A stretch of 64,000 nucleotides of DNA from Candidatus Liminaster caballi (GCA_018065085.1 JAGHUA010000031.1:2288-66287), one strand, 5' to 3'. Positions 31,230 through 51,510 are shown, counted from the stretch's first letter. Made by a program: numbers and translations. Notes: generated by a model from the letters alone, not told the origin.

Positions 31230-34200
31230 TTATCGTTCGAAAGGACTGATTGTAATCACACGGTCGAAAGGCACGGCACGCACCTTATAATCATCGAGCA
31301 CATAGACGGCTGTGCAGCCCACACCTGTAGTGGCATAGTCGAGGTTGAGCGTATAACGATCGTCCAACTGTTGCAGCTGATAGGTGAACTGGCTCTTGGT
31401 AAGATTATCGGTCGAGAACGGATAGGCATTGAAGTTGAAAAGTTCGTTCATTGAGATCTGCAGACCATGACCCTCAGCATCGAGAAGCTGGAGGTAACGG
31501 ATGTCAGTGCGAAGAGCATGATCCTGCGGGAAAAGATATGGCTCATACATGTCGGCTGCAGACTTGGACCAGATGCCTACAGGATAGCCCGTCTTGCGGT
31601 CGGGATAGTTCTCTTCAGGTCCACGGCCATACCATGTGAGCTGGTCGAACCGGCTGGAAACAGATGTAGTGAAGCCAATGCGAGGCAGGAGTTCGGGGAA
31701 CTTGCCATGCGGACTGGCATGAGTGTGGATGGTGAGCGTGCCATCGTCGAAGAACTGATAGGTGTAGTCGAGCGTATAGCCTGCCATGACAATTCCCTGG
31801 ATGTAGGGATCGAGCGAGGCAAACGAGGCGGCTCCCATCTGTACGAGCTGACGCACGGTGACCTGAGTGGAATAATCGGACTGCGAGAACTGGATATCGG
31901 CTACGCTGGTCTGCGGATTGTCAAGTCCCTTGGAATAGAACAGCGTTGCCACCATGCCGCCATAACCCTCAGCATAACCGCCATTGACACGCATGGCATC
32001 CCATTCGTCGAACTCATTGGCCAAAGGTGCACGCCACAGGTTGAAGGAGAGAGGTTCCTGAAGAACGGGGTCGCCATTGAGCATGATCTGCTCAAGATTG
32101 CCCGTCTCCTTATTTATAATATATGAGAAACCTTCGCCACTGATAGTGATCTGGCGGTCAGAAACATCGGCCTTGAGACGAGATGACGTACGCTGCACCT
32201 CGGCCTTTGCCAAATGCCATGAAGTGAGTTCGAGCTGATCCCATGCAACCTCATGATCGGCGTTTGCCCAAAGTTCGTCGTGCTTCAGCGTTGAGGTGAT
32301 GTTTACGCGATATTCACGGCCTGGCTCGATGACCGGCTTATGATATGGAATGCTTATGATCTGTTTCTGCTGAGGCGCTGCAGAGAGCTGGAGATCGCCT
32401 TCTTCGAGCACGTCGCCGTCGGACATCAGCTGCCAATGGGTGGCATAAGAACTGAGGTCGGTGAAATAGAGACGGTTGGTAACCTCGGCCTCTCCGGTCT
32501 CGGCATTGAGCAGACGTATGCTGATTGGCTGGGTAGTCCACTTCATCTGACGCATCTCGGGTTGAACTGTACGGTCTGGCCAGATGCAGCCATAAGTGCG
32601 CATGTTGCCGCCGATGGTGTAGAACGTTCCCTCATTGCCATTGCCGTCGAAAGTGAGATAGAGAACGGCATCCTCAGCCTTGCCCTCGCCATCGGCAAGA
32701 CATTTGTTATAGATTGCCACATTATCCATCTCGGCCTGTGCTGTGTAGATGGTCTGCGGTCCCTGGGCATGATTGCCGGCTAAGCGACCGATATTGATCG
32801 GATATGGGAAATTGGACATGCCTTTTGCTTTGGTGGAAGTGCTGCCAAGAAGCTGTCCATCGACATAGAGTCTCATCTCATCGTTGCCCCATGAGGCGGT
32901 GACGTGATGCCACTGATCTTCCCACTGAGCAGGCAGAGGAACTTCAAGAACGTGTTTTGTGCCTGTGTGGATATAGAACTGAAGCTTGTCGCTGCCTCGC
33001 TGAACGACTCCGAACTGTGTGCTGCCCTTGGTGACGAACGGCGCACCATCGAACATACCGCACAACCTGCCTGGCTTGACATCGAAGCTGATGGTCAATG
33101 CACGACCAGAAAGTTCGACATTCCGGCTGCGATAGACCTCCACCCACTCATCATGTCCGCTTAGGTACAACACTCCGCGCTGCACCTTGGAATTGCCCAT
33201 GAGATGAACAGGAGTATGATATGGCGAACTGTCGGTGAGCGGACGGATATGATCCTCAAGACCGGGATTGACAAAATCCCAGATTGCGCCTCCCATGAGT
33301 CGCGGATGACGACGGATGACATCCCAATATTCATCCATGCCGCCGCCGGCATTGCCTGCCACGGAAAGATATTCGTCCATAAATGACGGACGCGGATCGA
33401 CAGACTCAGGCACCATTGCCGTGTTCCGTTCGAGCTCGAAAGGCGTAGGATAACGCGGACCGATAATCTCTTCACCCGGATGGGCATAAGCATTGCCACC
33501 ATACATGAAGTAACGGGTAGGATCGTATTTCTTGCCTTCCTTTACCACCTCGGTGATATTGGGACCTTCGCCACTCTCATTGCCAGCACTCCAGAAGAGT
33601 ACGCACGGATGGTTTCTGTCGCGCATCACAAGCTGACGCACACGTTCGAGATACATCGGCAAGAATTTCGGATCGCTGGAAACAAACTCGGTGGCATGCG
33701 CCTCGTCGCCAGCTTCATCGATAATGTAAAGACCATATTCGTCGGCCAGCTCCAGATATTTGTTGACAGGCGGATAGTGTGATGTGCGTACAGCATTGAA
33801 ATTGTGCTGCTTCAAGATTTCCATATCACGGCGGATGGTCTCCTCATCGACCACATGTCCCTTGACTGGATGCTGCATGTGGGTGTTGATGGCATTGACC
33901 TTGATAGGCTGGCCATTGAGATAGAATGTCTGATGACGGATCTCGGTCTCCTTGAATCCCATGCGGCTTGTGATCTGCTGCATGACGTTTCCCGATTCAT
34001 CGAGAAGTTCGAGTTTTAAGGTATAGAGCACAGGTGTCTCGCATGTCCATTTGGCAGGCTTCTCGATGTGAGAAGCCATTTGGAATGAACGTTTGTCCCT
34101 GCCTTTGATCTGGAAAGGCTCAGTCTGCATCTCACGGACCTTCGCACCCTGGGCATCGGTCAAAGTGGCTCGTACGGAATAGTTGGCAGAACTCTCCTCA

Positions 34201-34955
34201 TAGCTCTTGACATCGACATTGAGACTGAGATCGGCATCGCGATAATCATCATCAAGATCGGTGGTCACGAACCAGTCGAACAGACGAGTGCGTGGTGTGG
34301 CATAGAGCGTGACATCGTCAAAGATGCCTGCCAGACGCCAATAATCCTGTCCCTCCAGATAGTAGCCATCGCTATATTTCACGACGCACACTGCCAGAGT
34401 GTTCTTGCCAGGCTTGACAAAAGAGGTGACATCATATTCGGCAGGTTCCTGACCTCCTTCGTTATAGCCTACCTGCTGGCCATTGATCCACACAAACGAT
34501 GCGCTCTGGACTTTCTCAAGTCGGAGGAAAATCTGCTGGCCACGCCATTGCGAAGGAATGTTGAAGGTACGACGATAAGCTCCAGTCGGATTGTATTCGC
34601 GAGGGACAAAGGGAGGATTGGCTTTGAACGGAGTCGGAACATTGCGGAACAGAGGATCTCCAAATCCCTCCATTTCCCAGTTGCTTGGCACCGAGATACT
34701 GCTCCACTTGCCGTCGCGGAAATCGGTGCGATAGAAATCATGAGGAATCTCCTCGGGCGTATTGGCAAAGAAGAAACGCCAAGTGCCATTGAGCGAGATC
34801 TGACGGTCGGCCACATAATAGGCATGAGGCTCCTCCTGATTCTCCTCGAAGACACTTGTGTTCTCTATGTAGTCATAGATATGTTCAAGATATTGAGCCT
34901 GCAACTGACATGAAAGGACAGATAGCAGACCTGCAAAAATGACTTTAAGTGACAT
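31230..34955 (-). CDS. Secreted GH2 beta-galactosidase-like glycoside hydrolase, 1241 aa, with a LamG-like insert
   Basis: It has a signal peptide, the GH2 catalytic region NHPCVLFWSAGNESGEG, and a C-terminal beta-gal small-chain-like region. A LamG-like segment contains WHHVTASWGNDEMRLYVDGQLLGS. Confidence 0.9.
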   Translation of the reverse strand: MSLKVIFAGLLSVLSCQLQAQYLEHIYDYIENTSVFEENQEEPHAYYVADRQISLNGTWRFFFANTPEEIPHDFYRTDFRDGKWSSISVPSNWEMEGFGDPLFRNVPTPFKANPPFVPREYNPTGAYRRTFNIPSQWRGQQIFLRLEKVQSASFVWINGQQVGYNEGGQEPAEYDVTSFVKPGKNTLAVCVVKYSDGYYLEGQDYWRLAGIFDDVTLYATPRTRLFDWFVTTDLDDDYRDADLSLNVDVKSYEESSANYSVRATLTDAQGAKVREMQTEPFQIKGRDKRSFQMASHIEKPAKWTCETPVLYTLKLELLDESGNVMQQITSRMGFKETEIRHQTFYLNGQPIKVNAINTHMQHPVKGHVVDEETIRRDMEILKQHNFNAVRTSHYPPVNKYLELADEYGLYIIDEAGDEAHATEFVSSDPKFLPMYLERVRQLVMRDRNHPCVLFWSAGNESGEGPNITEVVKEGKKYDPTRYFMYGGNAYAHPGEEIIGPRYPTPFELERNTAMVPESVDPRPSFMDEYLSVAGNAGGGMDEYWDVIRRHPRLMGGAIWDFVNPGLEDHIRPLTDSSPYHTPVHLMGNSKVQRGVLYLSGHDEWVEVYRSRNVELSGRALTISFDVKPGRLCGMFDGAPFVTKGSTQFGVVQRGSDKLQFYIHTGTKHVLEVPLPAQWEDQWHHVTASWGNDEMRLYVDGQLLGSTSTKAKGMSNFPYPINIGRLAGNHAQGPQTIYTAQAEMDNVAIYNKCLADGEGKAEDAVLYLTFDGNGNEGTFYTIGGNMRTYGCIWPDRTVQPEMRQMKWTTQPISIRLLNAETGEAEVTNRLYFTDLSSYATHWQLMSDGDVLEEGDLQLSAAPQQKQIISIPYHKPVIEPGREYRVNITSTLKHDELWANADHEVAWDQLELTSWHLAKAEVQRTSSRLKADVSDRQITISGEGFSYIINKETGNLEQIMLNGDPVLQEPLSFNLWRAPLANEFDEWDAMRVNGGYAEGYGGMVATLFYSKGLDNPQTSVADIQFSQSDYSTQVTVRQLVQMGAASFASLDPYIQGIVMAGYTLDYTYQFFDDGTLTIHTHASPHGKFPELLPRIGFTTSVSSRFDQLTWYGRGPEENYPDRKTGYPVGIWSKSAADMYEPYLFPQDHALRTDIRYLQLLDAEGHGLQISMNELFNFNAYPFSTDNLTKSQFTYQLQQLDDRYTLNLDYATTGVGCTAVYVLDDYKVRAVPFDRVITISPFER

Positions 34956-37914: not shown

Positions 37915-39159
37915 CTAAAGTTCGATGCGGAACGTCGTGCCCAATCCTACCGTGCTCGACTTGATAAAGATGCTTCCGTGATGATATTCCTCCACAATTC
38001 GCTTAACCAGGGCAAGTCCTAATCCCCAGCCTCTTTTCTTGGTCGTATAGCCAGGATTGAACACAGTATTCCATCTGTTCTTGGCTATTCCCTTGCCATT
38101 GTCTGTCACTTCAATGACCACTCCTGCACGCTTGGGCTTTCTGCCAAAGAATGAGAATGTCTGCTTTAGCCTTTCGTAATGGATGTCAATGCTGATCTGT
38201 TCCTTAGGCTTGTCCTGGGCATCGATGGCGTTCTTGCACAGGTTTTCGATGACCCACGCAAACAATGGCTTGCAGACATAGACCTCAACCGGGACGTCAG
38301 GCACAGATGCCGTGATGGATATACTCTTCGAAACACGGTTCTGCATATATTCGGCTGTACTGGTGACAACTTCGCGCAGGTCGCATTTCTCAAGCACAGG
38401 CTCACTTCCAATCTTAGAGAATCGTTCGGCAACAACACGGAGTCGCTGCACGTCCTTGTCCATCTCTGACGCAATGTCCAGACCTGAATTGTCAGATATG
38501 GAAACATCGGATGTGGTCTGTTGGTTGGCACGGAGGAACTCAACCCAACCCATAAGCGACTGGATAGGCGTGCCAAGCTGATGGGCTGTCTCCTTTGACA
38601 GACCGACCCACACCCTATTCTGTTCGGAACGCTTGCGGCTCAATAGCATGTAATAAAACAAAAGGGCGAGAACGATAACAGCCATGATCTGGACGTATGG
38701 ATAGTAATGCAACTGCTGGAGGAGTATCGACTCGTCATAGTAAAGATACTGCTTCCAATCGTCCATAATGTTTATCTCGATGAAGTTGCCTTTGTCTGTC
38801 AGCTCTGGAATCATCGACTGAAGATAGGCAATAGTGTCGCTGTCTGACACTGCCTTACCGAAACTGTAAAGAAATGGCAACTTAATATTCTTGAAACCCT
38901 GAACCGAACCATCGACCTCGGTATAGAAAACAGGAATGGTGGTGTTACTGCCAATAACCTGCCACTGCATCGACATGTCTGCATTCTGGTCGGCAAGGAT
39001 GAGTTGCTGGTATGCCTCTGCCCACAGCGCCATCTTCTCAGTCTCTTCCTGTCCAAGCGATTTGACCAAACCATTGGAAAAATAGAGGAACATGGAGATC
39101 AGCAATACTGACAGTATGAGAAATGTCCACTGAAGGGAACTCTTGAAATTCTGGTTCAT
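37915..39159 (-). CDS. Sensor histidine kinase (no adjacent response regulator)
   Basis: The H-box is HQLGTPIQSLMGW. ATPase boxes are NLCKNAIDA, DNGKGI and GWGLGLALV. It has two N-terminal TM segments. ATG 39159 is preferred because the ORF-track GTG 39195 lies inside the upstream terminator hairpin. Confidence 0.8.
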   Translation of the reverse strand: MNQNFKSSLQWTFLILSVLLISMFLYFSNGLVKSLGQEETEKMALWAEAYQQLILADQNADMSMQWQVIGSNTTIPVFYTEVDGSVQGFKNIKLPFLYSFGKAVSDSDTIAYLQSMIPELTDKGNFIEINIMDDWKQYLYYDESILLQQLHYYPYVQIMAVIVLALLFYYMLLSRKRSEQNRVWVGLSKETAHQLGTPIQSLMGWVEFLRANQQTTSDVSISDNSGLDIASEMDKDVQRLRVVAERFSKIGSEPVLEKCDLREVVTSTAEYMQNRVSKSISITASVPDVPVEVYVCKPLFAWVIENLCKNAIDAQDKPKEQISIDIHYERLKQTFSFFGRKPKRAGVVIEVTDNGKGIAKNRWNTVFNPGYTTKKRGWGLGLALVKRIVEEYHHGSIFIKSSTVGLGTTFRIEL

Positions 39160-39186
39160 AAATATTCTGTTTGTATATAAAGAAAA

Positions 39187-39220
39187 CGCAGCCACAGGCT
39201 TTTTATTGCCTATGGCTGCG
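39187..39220 (-). terminator. Terminator of the envelope operon
   Basis: 13-bp stem with one mismatch (CGCAGCCACAGGC / GCCTATGGCTGCG). On the minus strand it is followed by TTTTCTTTAT. Confidence 0.6.
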
Positions 39221-39247
39221 TATATTTAGTTGTGTTGTAACTTATTA

Positions 39248-42200
39248 TTACTTGTTCTTGCTCAAACGATACTTAACACCGAACATGGTGAAGAGGTTGA
39301 GCTTATCGCGCTTGGTTGGGATCATGTCACTGTCAGTAGTGAGCCATGTGAATCGTGGTTCAGCATAGAACGACAGCTTGTCTGTGAAGTTGTATGCGAA
39401 CTGAGCACCGAAGTTCAAGCCCATGTAGCTTGATGTGTGCATGATCTTGCTCAAGTCATGATCCTTGACTGCACCGCCTACACCACGCATTGTGTATGAG
39501 AGACCTGCAAGCAGGTTGACATCGAGATGACGTGTGTTGTCGTCATGACCATAGAGCATGTTGGTGAAGTTGAATACATAGTCAGGATCGATCGAGAGCC
39601 AGCGACCAGAACGTGGAACATCAACATTGCCACCTGCAAGCATCACACGTACACCATGAACAGGTGTTGCGTCATAGCCAAAGCCAAGCTCGAATGTTCC
39701 GCCCTTGACATCAAACATACCGACACCGCCCTGAACATAATAATCTGATTTCTCAGTCAGCTCAGCCTTCTTTGATGACAGGTCATACTGGATACCAAGC
39801 TGTGCTGTGACAGGAAGTGATGATGGGTTGGCGTTAACAAGATGTGAACGCATTTCGAGGAGAGCCCAGGCATTGTTGAAGACGCGATACTGAACCTGAG
39901 CAGCTGCTGTAGGACCGAATGTACGCTTCTTGCTTGTCTCGCCACGCAGACGACCGATTTCACCACCGGCAGAGAGAACAACGTTCAAGCGATTCTCGTA
40001 GTAGTCATAACGAGGGTTGAACATGTTAATGGCATTGATGCCAATCTCACCGCGTATGCCGAAGTAATCAATGTCGTTGCGGCGCTTTGAAATGCGATGG
40101 TTGTCAGCAAAGACACTACCCTGAACATTGAAGAGCTTGTTAAGACGATAGCCAAGTCGATAGTCGAAATCAACAAAGCGACCATTACCATTGGTCTTTC
40201 TGCCATCGATAGAGAACATCTGACCGCCAAGGAGGAACTGAGCATAGAGACGATCGATAGGCATGTTGAGGTTAGCCTCATGGATTGATCTACGGTTAAA
40301 GCGATAAGCAATACCGCCAAGAGCCTCAATACGAGAAGCGTAGTCATGACTCAATACTACACGTGGCTCGCCGAAGAGATCCCAGTACTCGTTGATATGC
40401 CATGCAAGCTGTGCACCTGCATCGAAGCCCCAATGCATATCCCAGTTGCTTGTGCGGATACCTGAAATGGCTGTTAATGGACCAGCGAACAGGCTGAAGT
40501 CGAAGCGACGGTATGGGTTGAAACCAAGAACCTCATTGGTGATATTGTGCATATACTCAAGAGATACCTCTGGAGTGTAGCGACGGAGATCGGCTGTCTG
40601 TGTGTAGTTGCGTACGTATATAAATGAACCGCGTGCACGTACAGACGAGTAGTTGTTGATGTGCATACCGATACCGAAGTGACCGGCTGGGTCAATGTGA
40701 TTAACAACACCACCCTTGCGTCCGCCAGGAGCGAAACTCAAACCGAGGGCTGCGTCCATAAACCATGTGCGGTGATCATCGATATCTGTAGGCATGTAAC
40801 CAAGACGTGGCAGGAGTCCGCGCTGGTTGTAGAAGATAACACCTGCATAGATATCGGCATGCTCCTTGCGATTCTTTGGAGTGAAGAATGTCTCGGCACG
40901 TGGCTCAACCATCACGTCGATATTGTCAGTGACTGAATAAGAAGCCTGGAGACCGCCCTCGAAACCAACACCGATAGTCTTCTTCTGTGTTGCGGAAAGA
41001 AGGTTCTGTGGTGAGAATGTAGGACCGGCAAAAGCACGGAGGTTGAAACGACGATATGGATCAACACCATACCAGAGGTTCAACAGGTTAGCCATATAGT
41101 CAACACCGAGGGTTACATCATATTTGCCATAAGACTTACCCTGCCATGAACGAGGCTGCTTGTGCTCATGCATTACGCGATTCCAAATGGCAGGAGTTGC
41201 ATCTGTCACATTGTTGATCCAGAACATACCGTTGAGACGGAATGAAGAAACCGGATTGAAACGATATCCAACAGCCAGCTTGCCTGTAAAGTCAGGATGC
41301 TTGAATGCATTCTTGATGCCCTGACGGTTGGAAGCAACCTGCGCGCCAAGACCTGGAGCAACCTCCATGAACCATGTGTTAGCATGCTGCTTAAGGCTGT
41401 CACGATACTGCTCGTTGAGTTCACGCCACTGATAAAGCTTGACACCGGTCATAAGATCCCAGCGAGGATACTGCTTTGAATTGATCTCATAACGAGGCTC
41501 AACAAAGACATCAAGACCAGGAAGGATACGACGTGTGAACTGGGCACCAAATTCAGCACCAGCACTCATTGATTTGAAGAAATTCTTCATGTCTGATGTC
41601 TGGCGTGGATGAACCTGAAGTGTTGGACCGGCAAAGAGATAGATGTCAGACCAACGTGTGCCGGTTACGTCATTGCCCCACCAGAGATTGGTGAGATTGA
41701 ACATATAGTCGGCACCGATTCTGGTGTTCCACTTATACTGATGCAGATAAGAGAAGTTACGCTGACCGATAAGCGAACCGCGAACACGGACTCCATGGAA
41801 ATCATTGATATTCATACCGACAGCAGCAGCAACCTGAGGAGCAAGACCATTGCGGAATGCCTCACCCCAGTGGAGAGGATGACCTGCACCAATTCCTGCC
41901 TCGAAGAACCACCGGTTAGTCATGTCGAGACGTTCAATAGAACGAGCCTCATGTGTGTCGTACTTCTTCCAGCGGGCATAGCGATCAAAGCTGCTTACAT
42001 AATATTCCATACCGGCAGCTGTTGAGAACATAGCCTCATGGATACGTTCGCCGTCAGCACCTGTAATACCTGGCTCATAGTCATACTTATAACCAGGATT
42101 AGAGATACGACCCTCAACAAACAGAGCATAGTGGTCAGAGAGGAAATACTTCAACTGTGAACCAATTGTAATGCCGAGGAATGGCGCTGTGAAGGTGTGA

Positions 42201-43363
42201 TTATCATTGCGATTGTTGAAAGCCTGACCGTGCTTACGGATCTGGCCTGCCTCGAAACCGCCTGACACTTCCCAACCGATACGGCCGATATAAGGCTTAT
42301 CGCCAAAGATTGACAATGGGTTGAAGATAAGTTCACCACGTGCACCACGCAGAGTCTGATAACGATAACCGCGATTAGCCACACGACGTGTTGTCATACC
42401 AATACCGGCAATATTCTCGAAATAACCGAGACGGGCAGCAACTGATGGGTTGAACCATACACCACCACCGAAACCGAAGTTGAGATGACGGCGACCCTTT
42501 GGCTTAAGACCATCGTATGTGAATGAAGATGCATCATTACGGGCAAGACCTGCATAAGTCTGGAAGAAAGAGTTAGCCAAAAGGCCACCATCTTCGTCGA
42601 GCACATCCATCTGAGGCTTAGTCAGACGGAAATAGAGACCGATGAGGGCATTCATGCCAGGATCAACGTCATGGAACGAAGTACGCTTGTCGTAATTGTC
42701 AGAATAGATGGTAAACTGAGGCTCGATGAAGAAACTCATGTTGTTTGCAATATTCTTACGATACTGCAAGCCCATGGCAGCAGCCACGAATATGTCATGA
42801 CCAGAGACCATGCCGCCCTTACCACCCATGGTGAGCAACCACTCGTTCTTACGATGGAGGTCGTAGCCATAATAGGTGTTAGAGATGTTCCACACATAGT
42901 CAAGGGCAAGGTTCATACGTTTCAGATTGCTGTATTGAGCAGTTTGAACCTGCGAATAGTTCAATCCGAGACGCACGGCACTTGACTTTGTGAAGTCCTT
43001 GCTTACTGCAATACCAAGACCTTTGACACTGGTTGGAATACGATGACCAAGTGCGTCGTTGATACGACCCAGACCAGTATAGCTTGAAGCAGGCCAAAGC
43101 ACGTCCGGGTTCCAGTAGAACATAAGTCCCCAGCCATCATACCAATGATCAAGATTCACCTCGTCAACATCTGGATCTCTATACAGATAACGAACCAAAT
43201 AGTTAGGTACATCCAGATCGATGACACCGTTAGCGCTCACCGCACTGGTAGCAGTCTCATCTGATGTTTCATCAGACACTGTGGCTGCCTGGGCCTCGCT
43301 CATTGAGAGTGAAGCTGCCAGGATAGCACAGCTGACTGCAATGTATTTAGTTAAATTGTTCAT
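39248..43363 (-). CDS. Giant outer-membrane protein with seven tandem small beta-barrel-like repeats, ~1371 aa
   Basis: It has a signal peptide (AILAASLSMSEAQA). Seven ~160-190-aa repeats each carry a DY[VM]xN[IL][ST]N-type motif and an [FV]xEPR-type motif, within alternating Gly/aromatic strand-like segments. ATG 43363 overlaps the upstream stop (TGATG). Confidence 0.75.
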   Translation of the reverse strand: MNNLTKYIAVSCAILAASLSMSEAQAATVSDETSDETATSAVSANGVIDLDVPNYLVRYLYRDPDVDEVNLDHWYDGWGLMFYWNPDVLWPASSYTGLGRINDALGHRIPTSVKGLGIAVSKDFTKSSAVRLGLNYSQVQTAQYSNLKRMNLALDYVWNISNTYYGYDLHRKNEWLLTMGGKGGMVSGHDIFVAAAMGLQYRKNIANNMSFFIEPQFTIYSDNYDKRTSFHDVDPGMNALIGLYFRLTKPQMDVLDEDGGLLANSFFQTYAGLARNDASSFTYDGLKPKGRRHLNFGFGGGVWFNPSVAARLGYFENIAGIGMTTRRVANRGYRYQTLRGARGELIFNPLSIFGDKPYIGRIGWEVSGGFEAGQIRKHGQAFNNRNDNHTFTAPFLGITIGSQLKYFLSDHYALFVEGRISNPGYKYDYEPGITGADGERIHEAMFSTAAGMEYYVSSFDRYARWKKYDTHEARSIERLDMTNRWFFEAGIGAGHPLHWGEAFRNGLAPQVAAAVGMNINDFHGVRVRGSLIGQRNFSYLHQYKWNTRIGADYMFNLTNLWWGNDVTGTRWSDIYLFAGPTLQVHPRQTSDMKNFFKSMSAGAEFGAQFTRRILPGLDVFVEPRYEINSKQYPRWDLMTGVKLYQWRELNEQYRDSLKQHANTWFMEVAPGLGAQVASNRQGIKNAFKHPDFTGKLAVGYRFNPVSSFRLNGMFWINNVTDATPAIWNRVMHEHKQPRSWQGKSYGKYDVTLGVDYMANLLNLWYGVDPYRRFNLRAFAGPTFSPQNLLSATQKKTIGVGFEGGLQASYSVTDNIDVMVEPRAETFFTPKNRKEHADIYAGVIFYNQRGLLPRLGYMPTDIDDHRTWFMDAALGLSFAPGGRKGGVVNHIDPAGHFGIGMHINNYSSVRARGSFIYVRNYTQTADLRRYTPEVSLEYMHNITNEVLGFNPYRRFDFSLFAGPLTAISGIRTSNWDMHWGFDAGAQLAWHINEYWDLFGEPRVVLSHDYASRIEALGGIAYRFNRRSIHEANLNMPIDRLYAQFLLGGQMFSIDGRKTNGNGRFVDFDYRLGYRLNKLFNVQGSVFADNHRISKRRNDIDYFGIRGEIGINAINMFNPRYDYYENRLNVVLSAGGEIGRLRGETSKKRTFGPTAAAQVQYRVFNNAWALLEMRSHLVNANPSSLPVTAQLGIQYDLSSKKAELTEKSDYYVQGGVGMFDVKGGTFELGFGYDATPVHGVRVMLAGGNVDVPRSGRWLSIDPDYVFNFTNMLYGHDDNTRHLDVNLLAGLSYTMRGVGGAVKDHDLSKIMHTSSYMGLNFGAQFAYNFTDKLSFYAEPRFTWLTTDSDMIPTKRDKLNLFTMFGVKYRLSKNK

Positions 43364-46300
43364 CACTTATTCTCGTTAGTCAAATAATCATTAATGTATG
43401 CTTCAACAGCCTCAAGATAGATGTCAAATCCATTAGACATGTTCTTCTGAGTACGATAGATACCGCGAATGTAGCTATCACCCTGACAACGTCCGATGAA
43501 TGTTGCGTTCTCATCAGTCTTAAAGAGTTCTACCAATGCCTCAACAGCCTTAGAGTAGTGTTCGTTCTTCTGGTCGAGATCCTTAAGGATACCCTCAGCA
43601 TAACGAGCCTCGGTAACAGCTGTGAAGTAGTTGCAGGCAGCACGATATGCAGGAACCTCCTCAGCCTCCTTCTTAAGGTCGGACAGACGGCTGTAGCAGT
43701 TGCGGAAGCAATCAACCATGCGTTCGTTAGAATAGCTGCCACCATCCTGCTGCAGGAGCTGGTTGGCAATAGACATGTTCACAACGTAGTAGTTCACAAC
43801 AGATGTCTGTGCGATGCTCTCAGCCAGACGCTCGTCGGTAAGGAAGTCGCTGGTGTAGCACTTGAGATAATCCTGAAGTGACTTACGTGCGTACTTCTTA
43901 TCGAATGCCTCGCTTGTGGTAGGAGACTGCATCAGGAACTGGATGAGTACATCGGCCTCACGGAGAGAGTTCTGATCACCCTTGCCAAGCAGACTCAGGA
44001 TCTGGTTGTAGAGGATGAAATCGGCATTGATATACTTCCAAACCTTGGTCTCGCCCTTATAGCTTGTATAGCGGGCTGAGTTACCACGCTGACTGCGTTC
44101 CTCAGCATCAATATAAGGAGCAAGAATCTCAGTGTTGTAGATCTTATAGTTGATACTGTCAGTAACAAGGAGAGTAGCAGCCATTGGCAATACGAGATCG
44201 AAATAATCGTCGTATGAACGCCAGTTGTTATTGCGTGTGAAGTTCTTTACACGCTGCTCCTTGAATTCGAGGAGGAACTTAGAAATACCGAGCTTCTCTT
44301 CCTTGGTCAGTTTATCTGTAGTAAGCATTGTCCAATAGTAGAAGGCATCGCACATACGGAGGTCACCACCGCTGCGATAGTACTTGACAACCATCTCCTC
44401 TGTAGGATCCTGAATATCCTGATAGAAGAAACGAACCTCAGTACGACGCAGTTCATTGAGAACTTCCTCAATCTTGGCATTCGAACCGTTAGTATAGCCG
44501 ATAGCGCTCTGGATGCTCTCGTAAGCAGTGTTATTCTCACAAGCTGTGCGAATCTTCTGTACGAGTTCGGCATTGCCAACAGAATCCTTTGCCCAAAGGA
44601 TATCGGCAACTTCTGACCAAGGAGCAACCTGGCCATGTGATACGATACGTGGACTCTGACCACCCATTCGGCCAATCTCACCTGAGATCCAGTTACCGAG
44701 TGACTGAGCACGCTGGTAAGAGAGTTCCTGGTTTCGCTGGAAACCACCTTCAGGAGAAGAAACACCGAGTACCATTACCGAGTCGATACGACGGCGGCTT
44801 GTTCCGTTCTCGTCGTCAACCCAGAGAATATCGTCAACAGTGCCGCTGATATAAGCGAGCAGTGAGTCATTCTTACCAAGGTGACGGTCGATAGCCGAGC
44901 TTGCCTTTGCAAACTGGAGACGAGCCGAACGGTCAACTGTATGAACCTCACGTGTAGAAGATATAGGCTTCATGTCGTCAACCGTATTGTTTGGAAGAAG
45001 CGGAGGACAATCGAACGAAGCTGCACCAGCACCGATGGTGAGGAACATGAGAGGAGTAGCGCGGTCGCAAGGACACTCTACTGTAGATGTGGTATCAACA
45101 TGTATGAAATCATGTGTATAGTTACGGTGAACCATACGATAATACTTGTTGATGTTAGGCATCTTGAACTCCCAGTTGTAGTTTGTACGCTTAGGCTCTG
45201 GCTCAAGGAATATGTTAACCTCGCTGAGATCCTGAACGTTCTGCACATCGAAGATCTTTTCGAACTCATCCATGAATGAGAATGAGTTGACACGTACCTT
45301 ATAGATTGAGTCAACGTTGTTGGCTGAAAGAATGGTAGCACGACCCTTCTCCTGCATGACATTGAATGCTGAGTCACGGAGAGCAAGGATTGAAGAGTTC
45401 TTCACCTGATAGTAAACGCTGTCAGTTGGGTTGGCAACGACATCGGTGTATGTGCTGATCCAACCGTCGATGAACTGATCAGAACTGAGACGTGGTGTGC
45501 GGTGAGCAATGTTATGACCACGTTCAACATAACGCGATAACTGACCGAAGAGAGCCGAATCAACCTCAAGAGTATAAATCTTAGACTCATTAACCTCAAG
45601 AGGACGACCGCCATCAGCAGGAAGGTCAATATGCTGGCGACGTGCATAACCGAGCAAACCGTTCTTGATCGATTCGAAGTCCTTATACTGGCATGCAGTA
45701 TTCCAGAGTGAATGATCAAGGTCGAATGACACTGTATCAGGATCAACAATCTTAAAGTCACGGGCACCCATCTGAGCTGCAAGAATCTCGTTCGTACGCA
45801 GACGGTAGTACTCCATTGTGTCGCGAGTCATCACACCGGCAGTACGACGGTAGAGTGAATGCTGGAACTTCTCGCCTGCAAACACGAATGGAATCTGGCG
45901 GAAGAGCGAGTCAGCATCCTCCTCATGACCAAGGATCTTATAGGCAAGAGACTTAGCCTCATCATTGCCTGCAAAGTCATTCTGAACGCGAACCAGATCC
46001 TCAACGAATGTACATGGCTCAACCACACGGTCGATAACCAGACGCTGGTTAGTCTTACCCTTGACCTCAATGTTCTCATTGATTGGCAGGTTAGAACCCT
46101 TTACAATGGTTGAGCGACGGATCTTACCGGTCTTCATCTTGGCAGACGTAGCCTGCTCAGCCAACTCACGGGCACCCTTATAATAGATGCATGCACGTGT
46201 GTCAGTACTGTTGTTATTCAGAATTGGCTCGATATTATGCTTCTCATACGAACCCTTGCTATCGTGATATACAACCAAAGCAACGCTGTATGGAGTCAAC

Positions 46301-46749
46301 TGATCCATAGAGTTCTCAATCCAGTAGTCGATGAGAGGCTTGAAATCGTTATACAACTCCTCTGCAATCCAGTTGGCCTCAGAGATTGAGAACACACCGT
46401 CACGGTCAGGATGGAGCAGATACTGCTTCTCCTCATAGTGCTGGATGTAGGCATTCAACTTAGCTGTCTTGGCATTGTCACGCTGGTACTGAATCAAGGA
46501 GTCAGCACCGACAGAGAACATCACATATACCTTCAGACCTTCAAGACCTGCACCTGTGAAGTGATCAATACCAAGCTTAATTTCGCCATCTAAGAGTTCC
46601 AGACTTGAGTTCTCGTCAGACGTAGCGTCCATGATGCGGAACTTCTTGTCAGGAAGCGATGACTGGGCGAAGGCTGGAACTATCTCGAAACAGCTCAAGA
46701 CAGCAACCATAGCCACAAGGCATATATTATTTATTATACGCTTCAACAT
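43363..46749 (-). CDS. Secreted 1128-aa protein with an internal OmpA-C-like peptidoglycan-binding motif
   Basis: It has a signal peptide (MVAVLSCFEIVPAFAQ). VLGVSSPEGGFQRNQELSYQRAQSLGNWI resembles the OmpA_C/DUF3868-type SPEG...N..LS..RA motif. The rest is unassigned. Confidence 0.7.
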   Translation of the reverse strand: MLKRIINNICLVAMVAVLSCFEIVPAFAQSSLPDKKFRIMDATSDENSSLELLDGEIKLGIDHFTGAGLEGLKVYVMFSVGADSLIQYQRDNAKTAKLNAYIQHYEEKQYLLHPDRDGVFSISEANWIAEELYNDFKPLIDYWIENSMDQLTPYSVALVVYHDSKGSYEKHNIEPILNNNSTDTRACIYYKGARELAEQATSAKMKTGKIRRSTIVKGSNLPINENIEVKGKTNQRLVIDRVVEPCTFVEDLVRVQNDFAGNDEAKSLAYKILGHEEDADSLFRQIPFVFAGEKFQHSLYRRTAGVMTRDTMEYYRLRTNEILAAQMGARDFKIVDPDTVSFDLDHSLWNTACQYKDFESIKNGLLGYARRQHIDLPADGGRPLEVNESKIYTLEVDSALFGQLSRYVERGHNIAHRTPRLSSDQFIDGWISTYTDVVANPTDSVYYQVKNSSILALRDSAFNVMQEKGRATILSANNVDSIYKVRVNSFSFMDEFEKIFDVQNVQDLSEVNIFLEPEPKRTNYNWEFKMPNINKYYRMVHRNYTHDFIHVDTTSTVECPCDRATPLMFLTIGAGAASFDCPPLLPNNTVDDMKPISSTREVHTVDRSARLQFAKASSAIDRHLGKNDSLLAYISGTVDDILWVDDENGTSRRRIDSVMVLGVSSPEGGFQRNQELSYQRAQSLGNWISGEIGRMGGQSPRIVSHGQVAPWSEVADILWAKDSVGNAELVQKIRTACENNTAYESIQSAIGYTNGSNAKIEEVLNELRRTEVRFFYQDIQDPTEEMVVKYYRSGGDLRMCDAFYYWTMLTTDKLTKEEKLGISKFLLEFKEQRVKNFTRNNNWRSYDDYFDLVLPMAATLLVTDSINYKIYNTEILAPYIDAEERSQRGNSARYTSYKGETKVWKYINADFILYNQILSLLGKGDQNSLREADVLIQFLMQSPTTSEAFDKKYARKSLQDYLKCYTSDFLTDERLAESIAQTSVVNYYVVNMSIANQLLQQDGGSYSNERMVDCFRNCYSRLSDLKKEAEEVPAYRAACNYFTAVTEARYAEGILKDLDQKNEHYSKAVEALVELFKTDENATFIGRCQGDSYIRGIYRTQKNMSNGFDIYLEAVEAYINDYLTNENK

Positions 46750-46763
46750 ACCTTATTTCCTTA

Positions 46764-47408
46764 TTATTTTAAAATGTATGTGATATTCACTCCGACGTTA
46801 GTGGTTGAGAAGTCACAATTGTGCGAAACTTCAGGTCCTCTGTAAGAGTAGCCTTTCTTCGACAGTTCACTTCCGTTTCTTACAGAACACTGGTTGTTCG
46901 AGAAAATCCAACCAGCACCGTAACAAAACTCCACGCTGAGCTTATGATTCAATGGCAAACTGTAGCCGAAGTTGAAACCAACAGGCAGAGCCACACCATC
47001 GTGCATAACCTTTACTTTCTTGTATTCCGTCTTATTGGTAGCTTTGTTAAGCAGATTCATGCCATGATTCAACCTCATGTTGTAATGAAGAGGAGTGGCC
47101 TGAAGACCAATAAAGAAATTTTCGTACGGCTGATGAGAGAACCAATAACGCATCTCAACCTGACCTGCCATGATTTCAGTATGACGGATGTATGAAGGGA
47201 AACCTTCAAAACTACCTACACCTGGCACAGTACCAATAAGGTTGACGTTAAATGACAGATATTCGTTAAGAACGAAATCAATACCGATATTCGGTGCACA
47301 TACAAGCCATTCAGCAGCATTTGTACGAAGTGCAAAGCTCTGAGCCTTAGCCGACTGTACGCTACATAAGCATACAATTCCCAATATTAATGACAATATC
47401 TTTTTCAT
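46764..47408 (-). CDS. DUF3575 outer-membrane beta-barrel protein, 214 aa
   Basis: It has a signal peptide. FALRTNAAEWLVCAPNIGIDFVL and QVEMRYWF fit the DUF3575 pattern. Confidence 0.75.
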   Translation of the reverse strand: MKKILSLILGIVCLCSVQSAKAQSFALRTNAAEWLVCAPNIGIDFVLNEYLSFNVNLIGTVPGVGSFEGFPSYIRHTEIMAGQVEMRYWFSHQPYENFFIGLQATPLHYNMRLNHGMNLLNKATNKTEYKKVKVMHDGVALPVGFNFGYSLPLNHKLSVEFCYGAGWIFSNNQCSVRNGSELSKKGYSYRGPEVSHNCDFSTTNVGVNITYILK

Positions 47409-47433: not shown

Positions 47434-49989
47434 TTATTCGCCAGCATTGTTATCGGTTGATTCTGTTGATTCACTCTCGTTCTGAGCAGCAGCCTCAGGT
47501 GCGGCGGTCTCAGAGTTTGCTTCTGCATTTGACTCAGAAGAAGACTCTGCAGAAGTTTCAGCAGCAGCTTCCGGAGCAGTCTCAGCAGCAGCAGGTGCTA
47601 CAAGACCGGCTTCTTCCTTTGTCTCGACAGGAACAATCAGGTAAGGAATAGTTGTAGAGAACATCTCGCCACGGCTGTTCTTGATCTCACGATGGAAGAC
47701 GATACGAGCCTGAGCGCGATACTTACCCTGATAGTTGCCAGTCTTATATGGAGTCTCGTTAACCTTGAAGGTAACATCATCCAACTGATATGGCTTAATC
47801 TCAGCAAAGATAATCTCCTTGACAGCCTCTACGAACTTCTGTGGGTTGACAAGCCACTTGCCTGACTCCTCGTCGAAGTAACCAGGAACCTTTGGATCAT
47901 CCTCATACAAACCTGAGTTGGTGAGCCAGTACTGACCGTCACGCCATGGACGGATAGTATCGTTCCACAAAGACTGTGCCTGAGCCTTACCGATTGAGTC
48001 TTCGATTACGAATGGAAGACTGAGATCGTTCTCAGTTACACCAAAGTGGAAGGTAACTGTTTCAGGTGCACCTGCAATAGTAAACTGGTTGATGCCATCC
48101 TCAATGCTGACGATATTTTCATCAATATCAGACAGACCAAGATTATGCATTGCAGCAATAACTTCCTGCTTGTTGATTGGGTTGACAAACGAGTCGTCAA
48201 CACCGTTCCAAGGACGCTGGATGCGGACCGTACTCTTCGAACGTGCAATATTGTTGAAGAACTCTGCTACATTATTATATAATGCGCGCGCGTCTTCAGC
48301 ACCTGCCATAGCAACACGGAAACGAGCCACACCTTCGTCCTCACCGCTCAGTGTAACCTGTGGGTGGAACTGAATGAACATAGCATAGATCTCGCGACGG
48401 TTGATCTGCTCCTGAGTAATGACACTGTCATAGTAGGTTGAGAAAGTACCGTCATCGTTCTTCTCATTGCGACCGACATAGAGTGTGCGGATCATAGCTG
48501 TGTCAAGCTTATGACCCCAGATGCTTGAGAAACGAGCAGCAATCGAATCCTTCGAGATAAACTCCTTCAGGCTGTCACGACTTGCAGGCTCACCGTAGAA
48601 GATAGGACGCTGGTTGCCATTAGCAGCATAATAGTTCTTCAAACTGTCAACGAAGCTCTTCTTCAATGAGTCAGCCTCGGCACGACCAGCGATCTCGACA
48701 CGGAAAGGAAGGTTGCGACGAGAGTTTACATATACTGAGTCACCATAGTTACGCAAGCGGTTGTTGGTGATATACTCAATATAGTAGTTATCGCTGAGCT
48801 CCTTATTATCAAGAGATGTTTGCGTATGCGCGAGCATATTAAAATTAGTAGGAAGGAGATAAGTAAGACCGGTTGACTGCTGGAAGGCAGAAACAATCAT
48901 GTTCTTATCAACATTCTCTACGAATGCAGAGTCAACACCATTGACGCTATGTACCTGAATTGCAACAGGATTAGCTTCAAGGATTGAATCAAGTTCAGCC
49001 ATGTGGATTGAATCTTGACGGTTAGCCTCGACATTCTTGGCATAAACCGAAGCATCTGGCTGCCAGTACTTCTTGCTGATAGTTGTATTGCGGAAATTAA
49101 GACCCACTTTCAACTCAGTGATGAAAGGGAAAATCTTATTGAGGCCAGCAGACTTGAAGCCATCACCGCGATAAGCATCATAGCGGAAGAACATCAGACC
49201 TGCACTTGCGCCGAGCGACCACTGGAGGAAACGCTTATGGTTGTAATTGAAACCAGGGAAGTCATAACCGCCTGTGATACCGGCACTGAATACATTACCA
49301 TTCTTGAATCCCTTAAGAATCATCTTATTATTAATGGTGACATTCATGTATTCACCGTATGCACCGATATAGTATCGGCCAGGGAACATCTCAGTGCGAC
49401 GCTTCACAGTCGAAGTAACAGTGCTGTCAATCTTTTGCTGAATGCGTGCCTCCTTCGACATTACCAACTTGGTAGCGTATGGATTACCGGCATTGATACC
49501 AGCTGTATCAGGCACCATTACCTCAATTGGCTTGGTCAGCCATTGCTCATTAACCCACATAGCAGCCTTAGTCAAACCACGGCGCTGGTCCTTACGTTCG
49601 TTGAAACGGAAATGCCAACGATACTCTGCGCGAGCACGCAAATAATAGAGAGCACTCGTAGTATAATCCTTCTTGTCAAGGAAACGCTCCTTGCCAGGAC
49701 GATACGACAACTGGAAGAAAATAGAAGGACAAGAGATGACTGTTGGGTCCTTCAGATCGTACTCGAAACCGATGTTCGGTGCGAAAATCATCCATTCCAG
49801 CAAGTTCGTAGACCAAGTGATGTTGGAGAACTTCTTAACAGTGTCGTTCGGCAAATCAAGTGGTTTGTAGTTACTACGACTCTCTGAGAGGTTCAGCTTC
49901 TTATACTGCGACTGGTCTGCCTTGACAACGCCTGCTGACATTGCCATCATTCCAATCACGCACAAGAGTGAAAAGAAAACCTTCTTCAT
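47434..49989 (-). CDS. DUF3575-barrel fusion protein, 851 aa, with an acidic Ala/Glu/Ser-rich tail
   Basis: It has a signal peptide. The N-terminal ITWSTNLLEWMIFAPNIGFEYDL ... RAEYRWHF is DUF3575-like. This is followed by a ~500-aa unassigned region and a ~60-aa low-complexity tail (APAAAETAPEAAAETSAESSSESNAEANSE). Confidence 0.7.
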   Translation of the reverse strand: MKKVFFSLLCVIGMMAMSAGVVKADQSQYKKLNLSESRSNYKPLDLPNDTVKKFSNITWSTNLLEWMIFAPNIGFEYDLKDPTVISCPSIFFQLSYRPGKERFLDKKDYTTSALYYLRARAEYRWHFRFNERKDQRRGLTKAAMWVNEQWLTKPIEVMVPDTAGINAGNPYATKLVMSKEARIQQKIDSTVTSTVKRRTEMFPGRYYIGAYGEYMNVTINNKMILKGFKNGNVFSAGITGGYDFPGFNYNHKRFLQWSLGASAGLMFFRYDAYRGDGFKSAGLNKIFPFITELKVGLNFRNTTISKKYWQPDASVYAKNVEANRQDSIHMAELDSILEANPVAIQVHSVNGVDSAFVENVDKNMIVSAFQQSTGLTYLLPTNFNMLAHTQTSLDNKELSDNYYIEYITNNRLRNYGDSVYVNSRRNLPFRVEIAGRAEADSLKKSFVDSLKNYYAANGNQRPIFYGEPASRDSLKEFISKDSIAARFSSIWGHKLDTAMIRTLYVGRNEKNDDGTFSTYYDSVITQEQINRREIYAMFIQFHPQVTLSGEDEGVARFRVAMAGAEDARALYNNVAEFFNNIARSKSTVRIQRPWNGVDDSFVNPINKQEVIAAMHNLGLSDIDENIVSIEDGINQFTIAGAPETVTFHFGVTENDLSLPFVIEDSIGKAQAQSLWNDTIRPWRDGQYWLTNSGLYEDDPKVPGYFDEESGKWLVNPQKFVEAVKEIIFAEIKPYQLDDVTFKVNETPYKTGNYQGKYRAQARIVFHREIKNSRGEMFSTTIPYLIVPVETKEEAGLVAPAAAETAPEAAAETSAESSSESNAEANSETAAPEAAAQNESESTESTDNNAGE

Positions 49990-50040: not shown

Positions 50041-51510
50041 TTAATATTCAGTCAATGGAGCCGACAGACGGATGTCGCCCGACTGCATCATGTAGTTCTG
50101 ACCAACACTCAGACCCTTCATAAAGAGCTGACCCTTGGCAAGCACATATTTATGACCCAGCTTCTTGGCGTTCTGTATATTAGTCTCAGCCTTTTCGAAC
50201 TCGCTTGCTTGATCGTCCTTCGAACACTGGCGCTTACCCTGGTTGACAGTCATGATAGCATTTGTGACAAGTACGTTAATATCAAGGGCCAAATCAATAC
50301 CAGCGCTCTTCACTGTCGATGCAACGGCAAGAATGATTGTACTCTTAAGATTATAGAAACGCATATCATTGTCGATAAGTTCTATAGCCTTGTTGATTGT
50401 AGTGTTTCCAAGGCTGTAACGCTTCTGCAAATGATATGTGAGTGCCTGATAGTAATAAGCCTCAGCATGCTGGTTGTCATTCTCAGCCAGTTCGTATGCA
50501 CGCTCATAATTGCGGAGGGCTGTGTCAAAGTCCTTCTGGTCGAGTGCACGGTTACCCAATGTACGGAACTTGGCATAAGTTGCACCGATGTTGGCATAGT
50601 AGGTATCAACCTTACGGGTCAATGCCTCCTTTGGCCAGCGTGAGCTCATCTCTTCACTGCGCTTGGCAAGATAAGCCTCATCATTCTTGTGAGCCTCAAT
50701 CTCGCTCTCTGGGTGAATCTTGATATACTCAGCAAATGGAATCACAAGCATACGGCTTGACTCGCAGACCTCAATCTTACGATCCATCACATAAGCACTG
50801 TAGTTATTAGAATTCTCCTTGAGGAAAGCATCCTCACGCTCGAACTCAGTCTGGATAGCGGTAAGACGACTGTAATAGTCCTGTGACTTCTTATTGTCCT
50901 TTCGGATTGACTCGATGTTAACCTTCATCTGCTCATTGATTGGCAGCATGATACCGTTGTAGATAATCCATGGATCAGCCTTTTCGCCCTGAGCCTGGAC
51001 GAAAGCCATGATCTTAGCCGAACGAGTTTCGAAATCCACACAACTTGAGAAACGAGCATAGTCGAGCATCTGCTGCATTTCATTCCACTGATTGCCGTTG
51101 TCACGGCCTGCGTAGTTATAAGTGTCAGGATTGAGGCCTGCAGCATAGTAATCATTGTAAATCTGATCGAGCTGATCGAGATAATTCTGATTACTGCTTT
51201 CGCCGAGCAGGTTACGAAGAGCAAAACGCGCATAACCATAGACGTTACGGTTACGCGAATATTCCTTCTTAGCCTGAGGGTAGAGATCAAGCATCTCGTG
51301 CCAGCTCTTGCTGGCCTGGAGGCGCTGCATCTGCTGCAGTACACCTTCAGTCTCTTCTTCCACAACTTCAGCTCCAGGATTGTCAGACTTCAAAACATTT
51401 TCCTTATACCAGGCCTCCTGCTTCATACCAGGATACTGTGCCCAAGATTCAGACACAAATCCGGTCATCATAGCAGCAAGCGCCATTACTACAAGAAGAT
51501 GTTGTTTCAT
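50041..51510 (-). CDS. Secreted all-helical TPR-like protein, 489 aa
   Basis: It has a signal peptide (MALAAMMTGFVSESWAQ) and a TPR-like segment (ALRNYERAYELAENDNQHAEAYYYQALTYHLQKRY). It is the first gene of the operon. A TATATTTG box on the minus strand lies at 51613-51606. Confidence 0.65.
   Translation of the reverse strand: MKQHLLVVMALAAMMTGFVSESWAQYPGMKQEAWYKENVLKSDNPGAEVVEEETEGVLQQMQRLQASKSWHEMLDLYPQAKKEYSRNRNVYGYARFALRNLLGESSNQNYLDQLDQIYNDYYAAGLNPDTYNYAGRDNGNQWNEMQQMLDYARFSSCVDFETRSAKIMAFVQAQGEKADPWIIYNGIMLPINEQMKVNIESIRKDNKKSQDYYSRLTAIQTEFEREDAFLKENSNNYSAYVMDRKIEVCESSRMLVIPFAEYIKIHPESEIEAHKNDEAYLAKRSEEMSSRWPKEALTRKVDTYYANIGATYAKFRTLGNRALDQKDFDTALRNYERAYELAENDNQHAEAYYYQALTYHLQKRYSLGNTTINKAIELIDNDMRFYNLKSTIILAVASTVKSAGIDLALDINVLVTNAIMTVNQGKRQCSKDDQASEFEKAETNIQNAKKLGHKYVLAKGQLFMKGLSVGQNYMMQSGDIRLSAPLTEY

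Follow-up and report, generated by a model that had tools for sequence, protein, structure and literature searches.

Outer-membrane chains containing several β-barrels were searched for systematically by Solan, Pereira, Lupas, Kolodny and Ben-Tal (PNAS 2021; PMC8346858). The poly-8 MB-superfamily of that study comprises 289 proteins in 28 families, with 2-11 eight-stranded barrels per chain (including chains of seven, (8)7, and of eleven, (8)11), and is restricted to Bacteroidetes, mainly Prevotella and Bacteroides (PMC8346858). In the evolutionary scheme given there, (8)11 arose via amplification, and (8)6 from (8)7 and (8)9 via deletion; the linkers have a median length of 22±13 amino acids (aa), and contact maps support separate barrels where sequences suffice (PMC8346858). 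Avidity-based adhesion was suggested as the function; how the β-barrel assembly machinery (BAM) builds several barrels from a single chain was named as an open question, including whether BAM requires one signal per chain or one per barrel (PMC8346858). Our literature searches found no experimental study of poly-8 proteins, in agreement with a preliminary description of the DNA analyzed here, which had called multi-barrel proteins essentially uncharacterized by experiment. This DNA is a 64,000-nucleotide (nt) stretch from Candidatus Liminaster caballi (GCA_018065085.1 JAGHUA010000031.1:2288-66287; hereafter the window), and the gene in question, at positions 39,248 to 43,363, encodes a protein of seven tandem repeats that we refer to as the multibarrel protein. 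Taken together, the evidence very probably makes it a poly-8 multibarrel with seven discrete barrels, which would be inserted barrel by barrel and would serve as an anchor or scaffold. The feature is real and was correctly read as a series of eight-stranded barrels, a kind of protein already described computationally in 2021 (PMC8346858).

The open reading frame (ORF) is intact and encodes 1371 aa at the position given by the preliminary description, on the minus strand, a detail absent from that description. The multibarrel protein is identical to database cluster P0001. Its N-terminal part contains the following features.

39248..43363, minus strand: coding sequence of the seven-barrel protein, 1371 aa, with ATG at 43363 and stop codon at 39248-39250 (ORF list and translation)
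43286..43363, minus strand: signal peptide of the signal peptidase I (SPI) type, aa 1-26, with A-Q-A before and A after the cleavage site (read from the sequence)
43166..43285, minus strand: N-terminal pre-barrel segment, aa 27-66, with the conserved helix LDVPNYLVRYLYRDPD (orthologue conservation and helix in the AlphaFold2 (AF2) model)

The signal peptide proposed earlier is present and of the Sec/SPI type (MNNLTKYIAVSCAILAASLSMSEAQA, followed by A), and its residues A24 and A26 are invariant across 17 orthologues. The pre-barrel segment, presumably periplasmic, contains a number of invariant residues (n=11: L50, D51, V52, L56, V57, R58, L60, Y61, R62, D65 and D67), and the AF2 model places a helix at model residues 25-35, corresponding to aa 52-62 of the multibarrel protein. 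Lying between the signal peptide and barrel 1, this conserved helix (LDVPNYLVRYLYRDPD) could be a docking or chaperone-binding element.

Self-BLASTP of the multibarrel protein returned its full-length identity match only. Since the repeats are too divergent for BLAST, this search is blind to them, and phmmer and an iterated repeat hidden Markov model (HMM) were therefore used. The HMM recognized exactly seven domains (each with E between 1e-27 and 1e-54) of approximately 160-195 aa, separated by gaps of 15, 24, 13, 15, 13 and 7 aa between HMM envelopes. The seven tandem repeats and the repeat length reported in the preliminary description are both correct. From the N-terminus, the repeats are as follows.

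42626..43165, minus strand: barrel repeat R1, aa 67-246 (repeat HMM E 6.8e-34; eight strands in the AF2 model)
41999..42580, minus strand: barrel repeat R2, aa 262-455, divergent type (repeat HMM E 1.3e-27; weak OMP_b-brl_2 match)
41429..41926, minus strand: barrel repeat R3, aa 480-645 (repeat HMM E 7.6e-43)
40826..41389, minus strand: barrel repeat R4, aa 659-846 (repeat HMM E 9.4e-54; Pfam OMP_b-brl E 2.4e-5 over profile positions 24-151/175; predicted local distance difference test score (pLDDT) of 77 in the AF2 pair model; Foldseek match to single small barrels)
40301..40780, minus strand: barrel repeat R5, aa 862-1021 (repeat HMM E 2.7e-53; Pfam OMP_b-brl E 4e-4; included in the AF2 pair model)
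39782..40261, minus strand: barrel repeat R6, aa 1035-1194, divergent and R2-like (repeat HMM E 3.2e-27; R2-R6 phmmer E 2.5e-4)
39266..39760, minus strand: barrel repeat R7, aa 1202-1366 (repeat HMM E 1.9e-33; Pfam OMP_b-brl E 1.2e-4)

Homology among the repeats is far above chance. When all repeats were compared with each other by phmmer, R3, R4 and R5 matched with E values of 1e-13 to 1e-17, R1 matched R7 at 1e-9 and R7 matched R3 at 1e-11; the divergent repeats R2 and R6 are each other's best match (E 2.5e-4). All 19 motifs quoted in the preliminary description were recovered at even spacing: the mid-repeat motif in 7/7 cases (starting at aa 154, 344, 551, 754, 935, 1107 and 1260), the E-P-R-type motif in 7/7 (aa 211, 414, 619, 817, 996, 1167 and 1332) and the closing strand in 5/5 (aa 242, 640, 1017, 1190 and 1362).

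Several lines of sequence evidence point to eight-stranded outer-membrane barrels. The whole multibarrel protein matches the Pfam family OMP_b-brl (PF13505) with 43.6 bits (E 4.7e-11; gathering cut-off 28.7), and R4, R5 and R7 taken singly cover approximately profile positions 17-157 of 175 (E 2e-5 to 4e-4). R1, R2 and R6 taken singly have no significant barrel match in Pfam, and NCBIfam holds no family for the multibarrel protein. Profile and sequence searches with a repeat pair against PDB sequences also gave no match. In the consensus of 175 aligned repeats, drawn from the multibarrel protein of the window and 16 relatives, there are eight amphipathic segments with strict period-2 hydrophobicity. 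Within the window's own protein, the hydrophobic moment at 180 degrees is significant for 21 of the 56 strands when each strand is compared with its own shuffles, approximately three being expected by chance. The membrane-facing periodicity, whose loss the preliminary description had named as grounds for abandoning its reading, is present in these period-2 strands.

The segments between the strands are equally informative. Odd inter-strand segments are long and variable, with a mean conservation among orthologues of 0.51-0.58, and even ones are short and conserved (0.74-0.83; strands 0.74; Mann-Whitney p 3e-19). The combination looked for in a membrane barrel is thus found in full: strands with alternating lipid-facing hydrophobic residues, outer loops that are long and variable, and periplasmic turns that are short and conserved. 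The asymmetry fits extracellular loops and periplasmic turns, which would place both termini of each barrel in the periplasm. One turn is exceptional, namely that joining strand 4 to strand 5 (NLxNLWYGxNPYRRF), being long, highly conserved and partly helical in the models. The inter-barrel linkers are moderately conserved. Judged by these patterns, the conserved surface of the chain would be the periplasmic one, a feature that is new with this locus. The last strand has an invariant glycine in 174/175 repeats, followed at +3 by an aromatic or hydrophobic residue in 168/174. Each barrel thus appears to keep a β-signal-like G-Phi-x-Omega ending of its own, the Bacteroidetes β-signal itself being ill-defined; this is likewise new with this locus.

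These data bear on two other explanations. If the repeats formed a soluble β-rich protein, such as a β-sandwich or β-solenoid in the periplasm or outside the cell, the failure of R1, R2 and R6 to match a Pfam barrel singly would be readily understood. Such a fold is extremely improbable, given that the protein as a whole passes the OMP_b-brl threshold, its strands have an alternating hydrophobic face, its loops and turns differ in the manner of membrane barrels, every repeat has a β-signal-like end, and the AF2 units superimpose on membrane barrels (see below). The second explanation accepts seven discrete barrels and regards them as a surface adhesin, in which the variable loops of the adjacent barrels bind with high avidity to repeated epitopes, for example on polysaccharides of the gut or glycans of the host. 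This function was proposed for the poly-8 proteins of gut Bacteroides and Prevotella (PMC8346858); in addition, long outer loops are predicted, the DNA was obtained from a gut metagenome, and loop variability could reflect diversifying selection on an adhesin. We nevertheless regard an adhesin as the less likely function, albeit a serious rival: a conserved ligand site in the loops would predict the opposite of the observed pattern, in which the outer loops are least conserved (0.51-0.58) and the periplasmic turns most (0.74-0.83), and the partners encoded in the same operon are envelope proteins, not glycan-utilization genes. The resemblance to eight-stranded OMP_b-brl-type barrels noted in the preliminary description is borne out by the above-threshold PF13505 match, the amphipathic strands, the conservation of loops and turns, and the AF2 models.

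Two AF2 models were calculated, one covering R1-R6 (aa 28-1195) with a 17-row alignment and one covering R4-R5 (aa 649-1024) with 27 aligned R4/R5-type pairs cut from the family. The first has a pLDDT of 64 and eight strands per repeat; the second has a pLDDT of 77.3, a predicted template modeling score (pTM) of 0.59 and 8+8 strands. Coil or helix lies between the barrels. In the Foldseek search of the PDB, large barrels including OmpG, OmpF, LptD and TonB-dependent transporters ranked at the top. Their superpositions are poor for both the pair model (template modeling score (TM) 0.14-0.31; root mean square deviation (rmsd) 18-25 Å) and the six-repeat model (TM 0.07-0.28; rmsd 19-42 Å). Because the Foldseek ranking favors long alignments, only long barrels were listed against the PDB, and this result is usable as negative evidence only. 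Large porins are few in a second, viral structure library, and here single small barrels (147-190 aa) cover approximately half of the pair model (159-206 columns), superimposing on the R4-R5 halves with TMt 0.60-0.72 and rmsd 3.2-5.4 Å. Entries called "Outer membrane protein beta-barrel", "COG3637 Opacity protein" or "OmpA-like" are among them. The porins within this library fit the pair model poorly (TM 0.12-0.19; rmsd 19-23 Å), and over both libraries 14-16-stranded barrels align with it from end to end, but with TM values of 0.12-0.31 and rmsd values of 18-25 Å. In the models, an up-down meander appears to be common to the repeats and the large barrels, while the global shape differs. R4-R5 is thus predicted to form two separate eight-stranded barrels and not one 16-stranded barrel, because single small barrels fit each half while 14-16-stranded barrels do not.

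The same comparison addresses the explanation that the repeats fuse, whether all together, giving a single giant barrel with as many as 56 strands, or in groups, giving a number of larger barrels such as 16-stranded pairs. There is a precedent in that two OmpX barrels are able to merge into a single larger one when the linker between them has two residues (Arnold et al., as cited in PMC8346858), and the top PDB matches of Foldseek are large barrels by local 3Di pattern. Fusion is, however, very unlikely here: the large-barrel matches superimpose badly (TM 0.07-0.31; rmsd 18-42 Å), whereas half of the pair model can be matched with single small barrels (TMt 0.60-0.72); the linkers are approximately 7-24 aa long and conserved; the repeats match a single-barrel profile nearly from end to end; and copy number changes by whole repeats (7 vs 11, and 3-15 across the superfamily). 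The AlphaFold check suggested in the preliminary description, carried out on R1-R6 and R4-R5, gave eight strands per repeat and a pair resembling small barrels; neither of the two outcomes named there as contrary, one large barrel or a soluble β-solenoid, was seen when Foldseek was applied to the AF2 models.

Seven discrete barrels are also consistent with the relatives of the protein. Close relatives form 17 clusters at 90% identity, all from uncultured Bacteroidales. Three of these clusters have seven repeats, namely the window protein, P0002 (69% identity) and P0017 (43%); the other 14 comprise proteins of 2079-2128 aa with 11 repeats, in which an extra region of approximately 730 aa, equivalent to two more R4/R5-type pairs, lies inside R4. 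Further seven-repeat proteins are found in L006 (33% identity) and P0036. An alignment-based scan of contigs identified three loci in metagenome-assembled genomes (MAGs) of uncultured Bacteroidales, and a scan with patterns from the single protein gave no match. Reads with the gene come from gut metagenomes, that of horse included. A profile search of 1.84 billion representatives resulted in 594 clusters related at E ≤ 0.001. In the top 150 of the 594 together with the family, repeat counts range from 3 to 15, with modes at 4, 5, 7 and 11 and a single exception, a 146-aa sequence with one repeat. By repeat HMM, P0037 (2889 aa) has 15 barrels, P0042 (2559 aa) 13 and P0035 (2427 aa) 12, exceeding the maximum of 11 in the 2021 paper. 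The 594 clusters with 3-15 repeats agree with one large superfamily, whose identity with the published superfamily is not proven.

Since repeat counts in the superfamily span 3-15, seven barrels would be an ordinary number for it. The preliminary description had called a seven-fold chain extreme, which does not hold: the closest relatives have 11 barrels, others have 12, 13 or 15, and chains of 2-11 barrels, including (8)7, have been published (PMC8346858). The prevalence of 11 repeats among the close relatives and the origin of the sequence from a metagenome assembly might suggest that the seven-repeat form was produced by faulty assembly or is what is left of an 11-repeat gene in decay. This is scarcely conceivable. 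Repeats that differ this much from one another would not be collapsed by an assembler (self-BLASTP gives the identity match only), four independent proteins also have seven repeats (P0002 at 69%, P0017 at 43% and L006 at 33% identity, plus P0036), the reading frame is intact, all seven repeats have strong scores, and the missing part corresponds to whole repeats.

The gene for the seven-barrel chain is the last of five same-strand genes, the products of which all have signal peptides. The gaps between them are 51, 25 and 14 nt, followed by a TGATG stop/start overlap, and a 366-nt intergenic region lies upstream of the first gene. In order of transcription, the other four genes and the putative end of the operon are as follows.

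50041..51510, minus strand: gene E, first gene of the cassette, encoding a 489-aa TPR-containing protein with a signal peptide (TPR_16/TPR_2 matches below threshold; position conserved)
47434..49989, minus strand: gene D, encoding a protein of 851 aa in which a DUF3575-like barrel at the N-terminal end (weak match to PF12099, E 3e-4) is followed by a long extension and, finally, an acidic Ala/Glu/Ser tail
46764..47408, minus strand: gene C, encoding a 214-aa DUF3575 small barrel with a signal peptide (Pfam PF12099, E 2.4e-25)
43363..46749, minus strand: gene B, encoding a protein of 1128 aa that has a signal peptide and matches no known family (in TGATG, the gene's TGA stop codon and the multibarrel ATG overlap)
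39186..39221, minus strand: terminator-like hairpin with a 14-bp stem, nine G-C pairs and a T-rich tail (consensus scan, pattern match only)

The gene order is identical in close MAGs. It also recurs in the distant genome L006, where the flanking genes are different and the proteins are 28-40% identical. The locus thus appears to contain a conserved, translationally coupled five-gene envelope cassette ending in the multibarrel gene, which has not been described before. Gene B occurs only adjoining multibarrel genes (17 clusters), and its product is 75% identical in relatives whose multibarrel protein is 37-42% identical. No relative of protein B was found in Pfam, NCBIfam or PDB sequences, and proteins C and D, like B, are without an NCBIfam family. 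Protein B, probably the unknown product from which most could be learned at this locus, contains a weak OmpA-like motif (VLGVSSPEGGFQRNQELSYQRAQSL, aa 652-688). A Radical_SAM match in the same protein (E 0.007, one of 11 members) was rejected as chance. In the protein encoded by gene D, the DUF3575-like barrel is interrupted by an insertion and followed by a long non-barrel region and a low-complexity tail (aa ~795-851); its orthologues in related MAGs have 1404-1418 aa, being approximately 570 aa longer at the C-terminus.

The hairpin lies approximately 27 nt past the multibarrel stop codon and likely marks the end of the operon. It extends into the initial codons of the longest ORF for a downstream histidine kinase (37915-39195, minus strand, GTG at 39195), and alignments of this kinase to its orthologues begin at residue 13. 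The true start of the kinase is probably further downstream, and the gene probably forms a transcription unit of its own. It was set aside as a member of the cassette because the terminator-like hairpin intervenes and because no kinase follows the cassette on the L006 contig, which ends a short way beyond it. Elsewhere in the window, 31230-34955 (minus strand) encodes a 1241-aa GH2 β-galactosidase with a Laminin_G_3 (concanavalin-like) insertion, ordinary-looking for gut Bacteroidales. In the related MAG L001, a PPDK_N-like gene occupies the position of this GH2 gene, and the flanking housekeeping genes are unchanged.

A multivalent anchor or scaffold is the most likely function of the multibarrel protein, as suggested by gene context and the conservation pattern. 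According to this proposal, Sec would export the preprotein, signal peptidase I would cut it after A26, and each unit of approximately 165 aa would fold into the outer membrane as a separate eight-stranded OmpX/Opa-like barrel. Insertion would most likely proceed via BAM, barrel by barrel, because every unit ends in its own β-signal-like G-Phi-x-Omega motif. The product would be seven barrels joined by short periplasmic linkers (~7-24 aa), with long, variable surface loops (L1-L4) and conserved periplasmic turns, foremost NLxNLWYGxNPYRRF. The conserved periplasmic face would dock the periplasmic partners encoded in the operon, an envelope complex would thereby be held in the outer membrane, and the outer membrane would perhaps be tethered to peptidoglycan through protein B. 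The number of barrels (7 or 11) would shift by gain or loss of R4-R5-type barrel pairs. As a more tentative and rather doubtful extension, the cassette may represent an undescribed Bacteroidales-specific envelope complex, in which the poly-8 chain is a multivalent anchor of tunable length that docks the highly conserved 1128-aa protein through its linkers and conserved periplasmic turns and so tethers the outer membrane to the cell wall.

Several observations weigh against the reading as a seven-barrel anchor, in addition to the Pfam result for R1, R2 and R6, the adhesin function published for poly-8 proteins, and the derivation of the anchor role from context and conservation. The AF2 confidence is moderate, the underlying alignments are shallow (17 and 27 rows) and the coverage is R1-R6. 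Covariation analysis of the 175 repeats for closure between strands 1 and 8, by mutual information with average product correction (MI-APC), was dominated by the repeat-subtype signal and hence uninformative, and was left unused. The PF00691 match in protein B is below threshold and occurs in five of 11 family members (best E 0.003). None of the RNA runs searched for the gene contain it.

The value of the locus is incremental, as it provides context and testable hypotheses for a known class and not a new class. A compact seven-barrel member with close 11-barrel relatives constitutes a natural copy-number series, and the conserved five-gene operon names candidate partners for a poly-8 chain. 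Moreover, if it is true that each barrel bears a β-signal-like motif, the protein would be a natural substrate for the question of barrel-by-barrel BAM insertion.

Compared with known systems, the repeats share with single OMP_b-brl barrels (PF13505; Opa/Omp25/COG3637-like and OmpX/OmpA-TM-like) the eight amphipathic strands, the profile match and the small-barrel fit (TMt 0.60-0.72), and they differ in occurring as seven copies per chain and in the turn that links strands 4 and 5, which is unusual in its length, its conservation and its partly helical form. No OmpA_C-like domain (PF00691) was found in the multibarrel protein, which sets it apart from the OmpA family. DUF3575 proteins (PF12099) are likewise small predicted outer-membrane barrels. 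The link to this family raised in the preliminary description fails for the repeats themselves, as the comparison of the repeat profile with the neighboring DUF3575 proteins indicated no relationship (hhalign E 0.15, probability 0.4%) and the multibarrel protein has no match to Pfam DUF3575; it stands for the locus in that two DUF3575 barrels are encoded in the multibarrel's operon. The two-barrel proteins YjbH/GfcD (12-12) and other multibarrels with some experimental background resemble the protein in having several barrels per chain and in being encoded within an envelope operon; they differ from it in the size of the barrels, the phylum and the operon, and their sequences showed no relationship to it.

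The closest system is the poly-8 superfamily. Tandem eight-stranded barrels, copy-number change by whole barrels, a Bacteroidales source (three MAGs, gut) and substantial linkers (~7-24 aa here vs 22±13 aa) are common to both, and the multibarrel protein would be a member of this class by every testable defining feature. The operon context, the per-barrel β-signal and the conservation of loops and turns are given here and absent from PMC8346858, and the relatives found in this study reach 12, 13 and 15 barrels, compared with a published maximum of 11.

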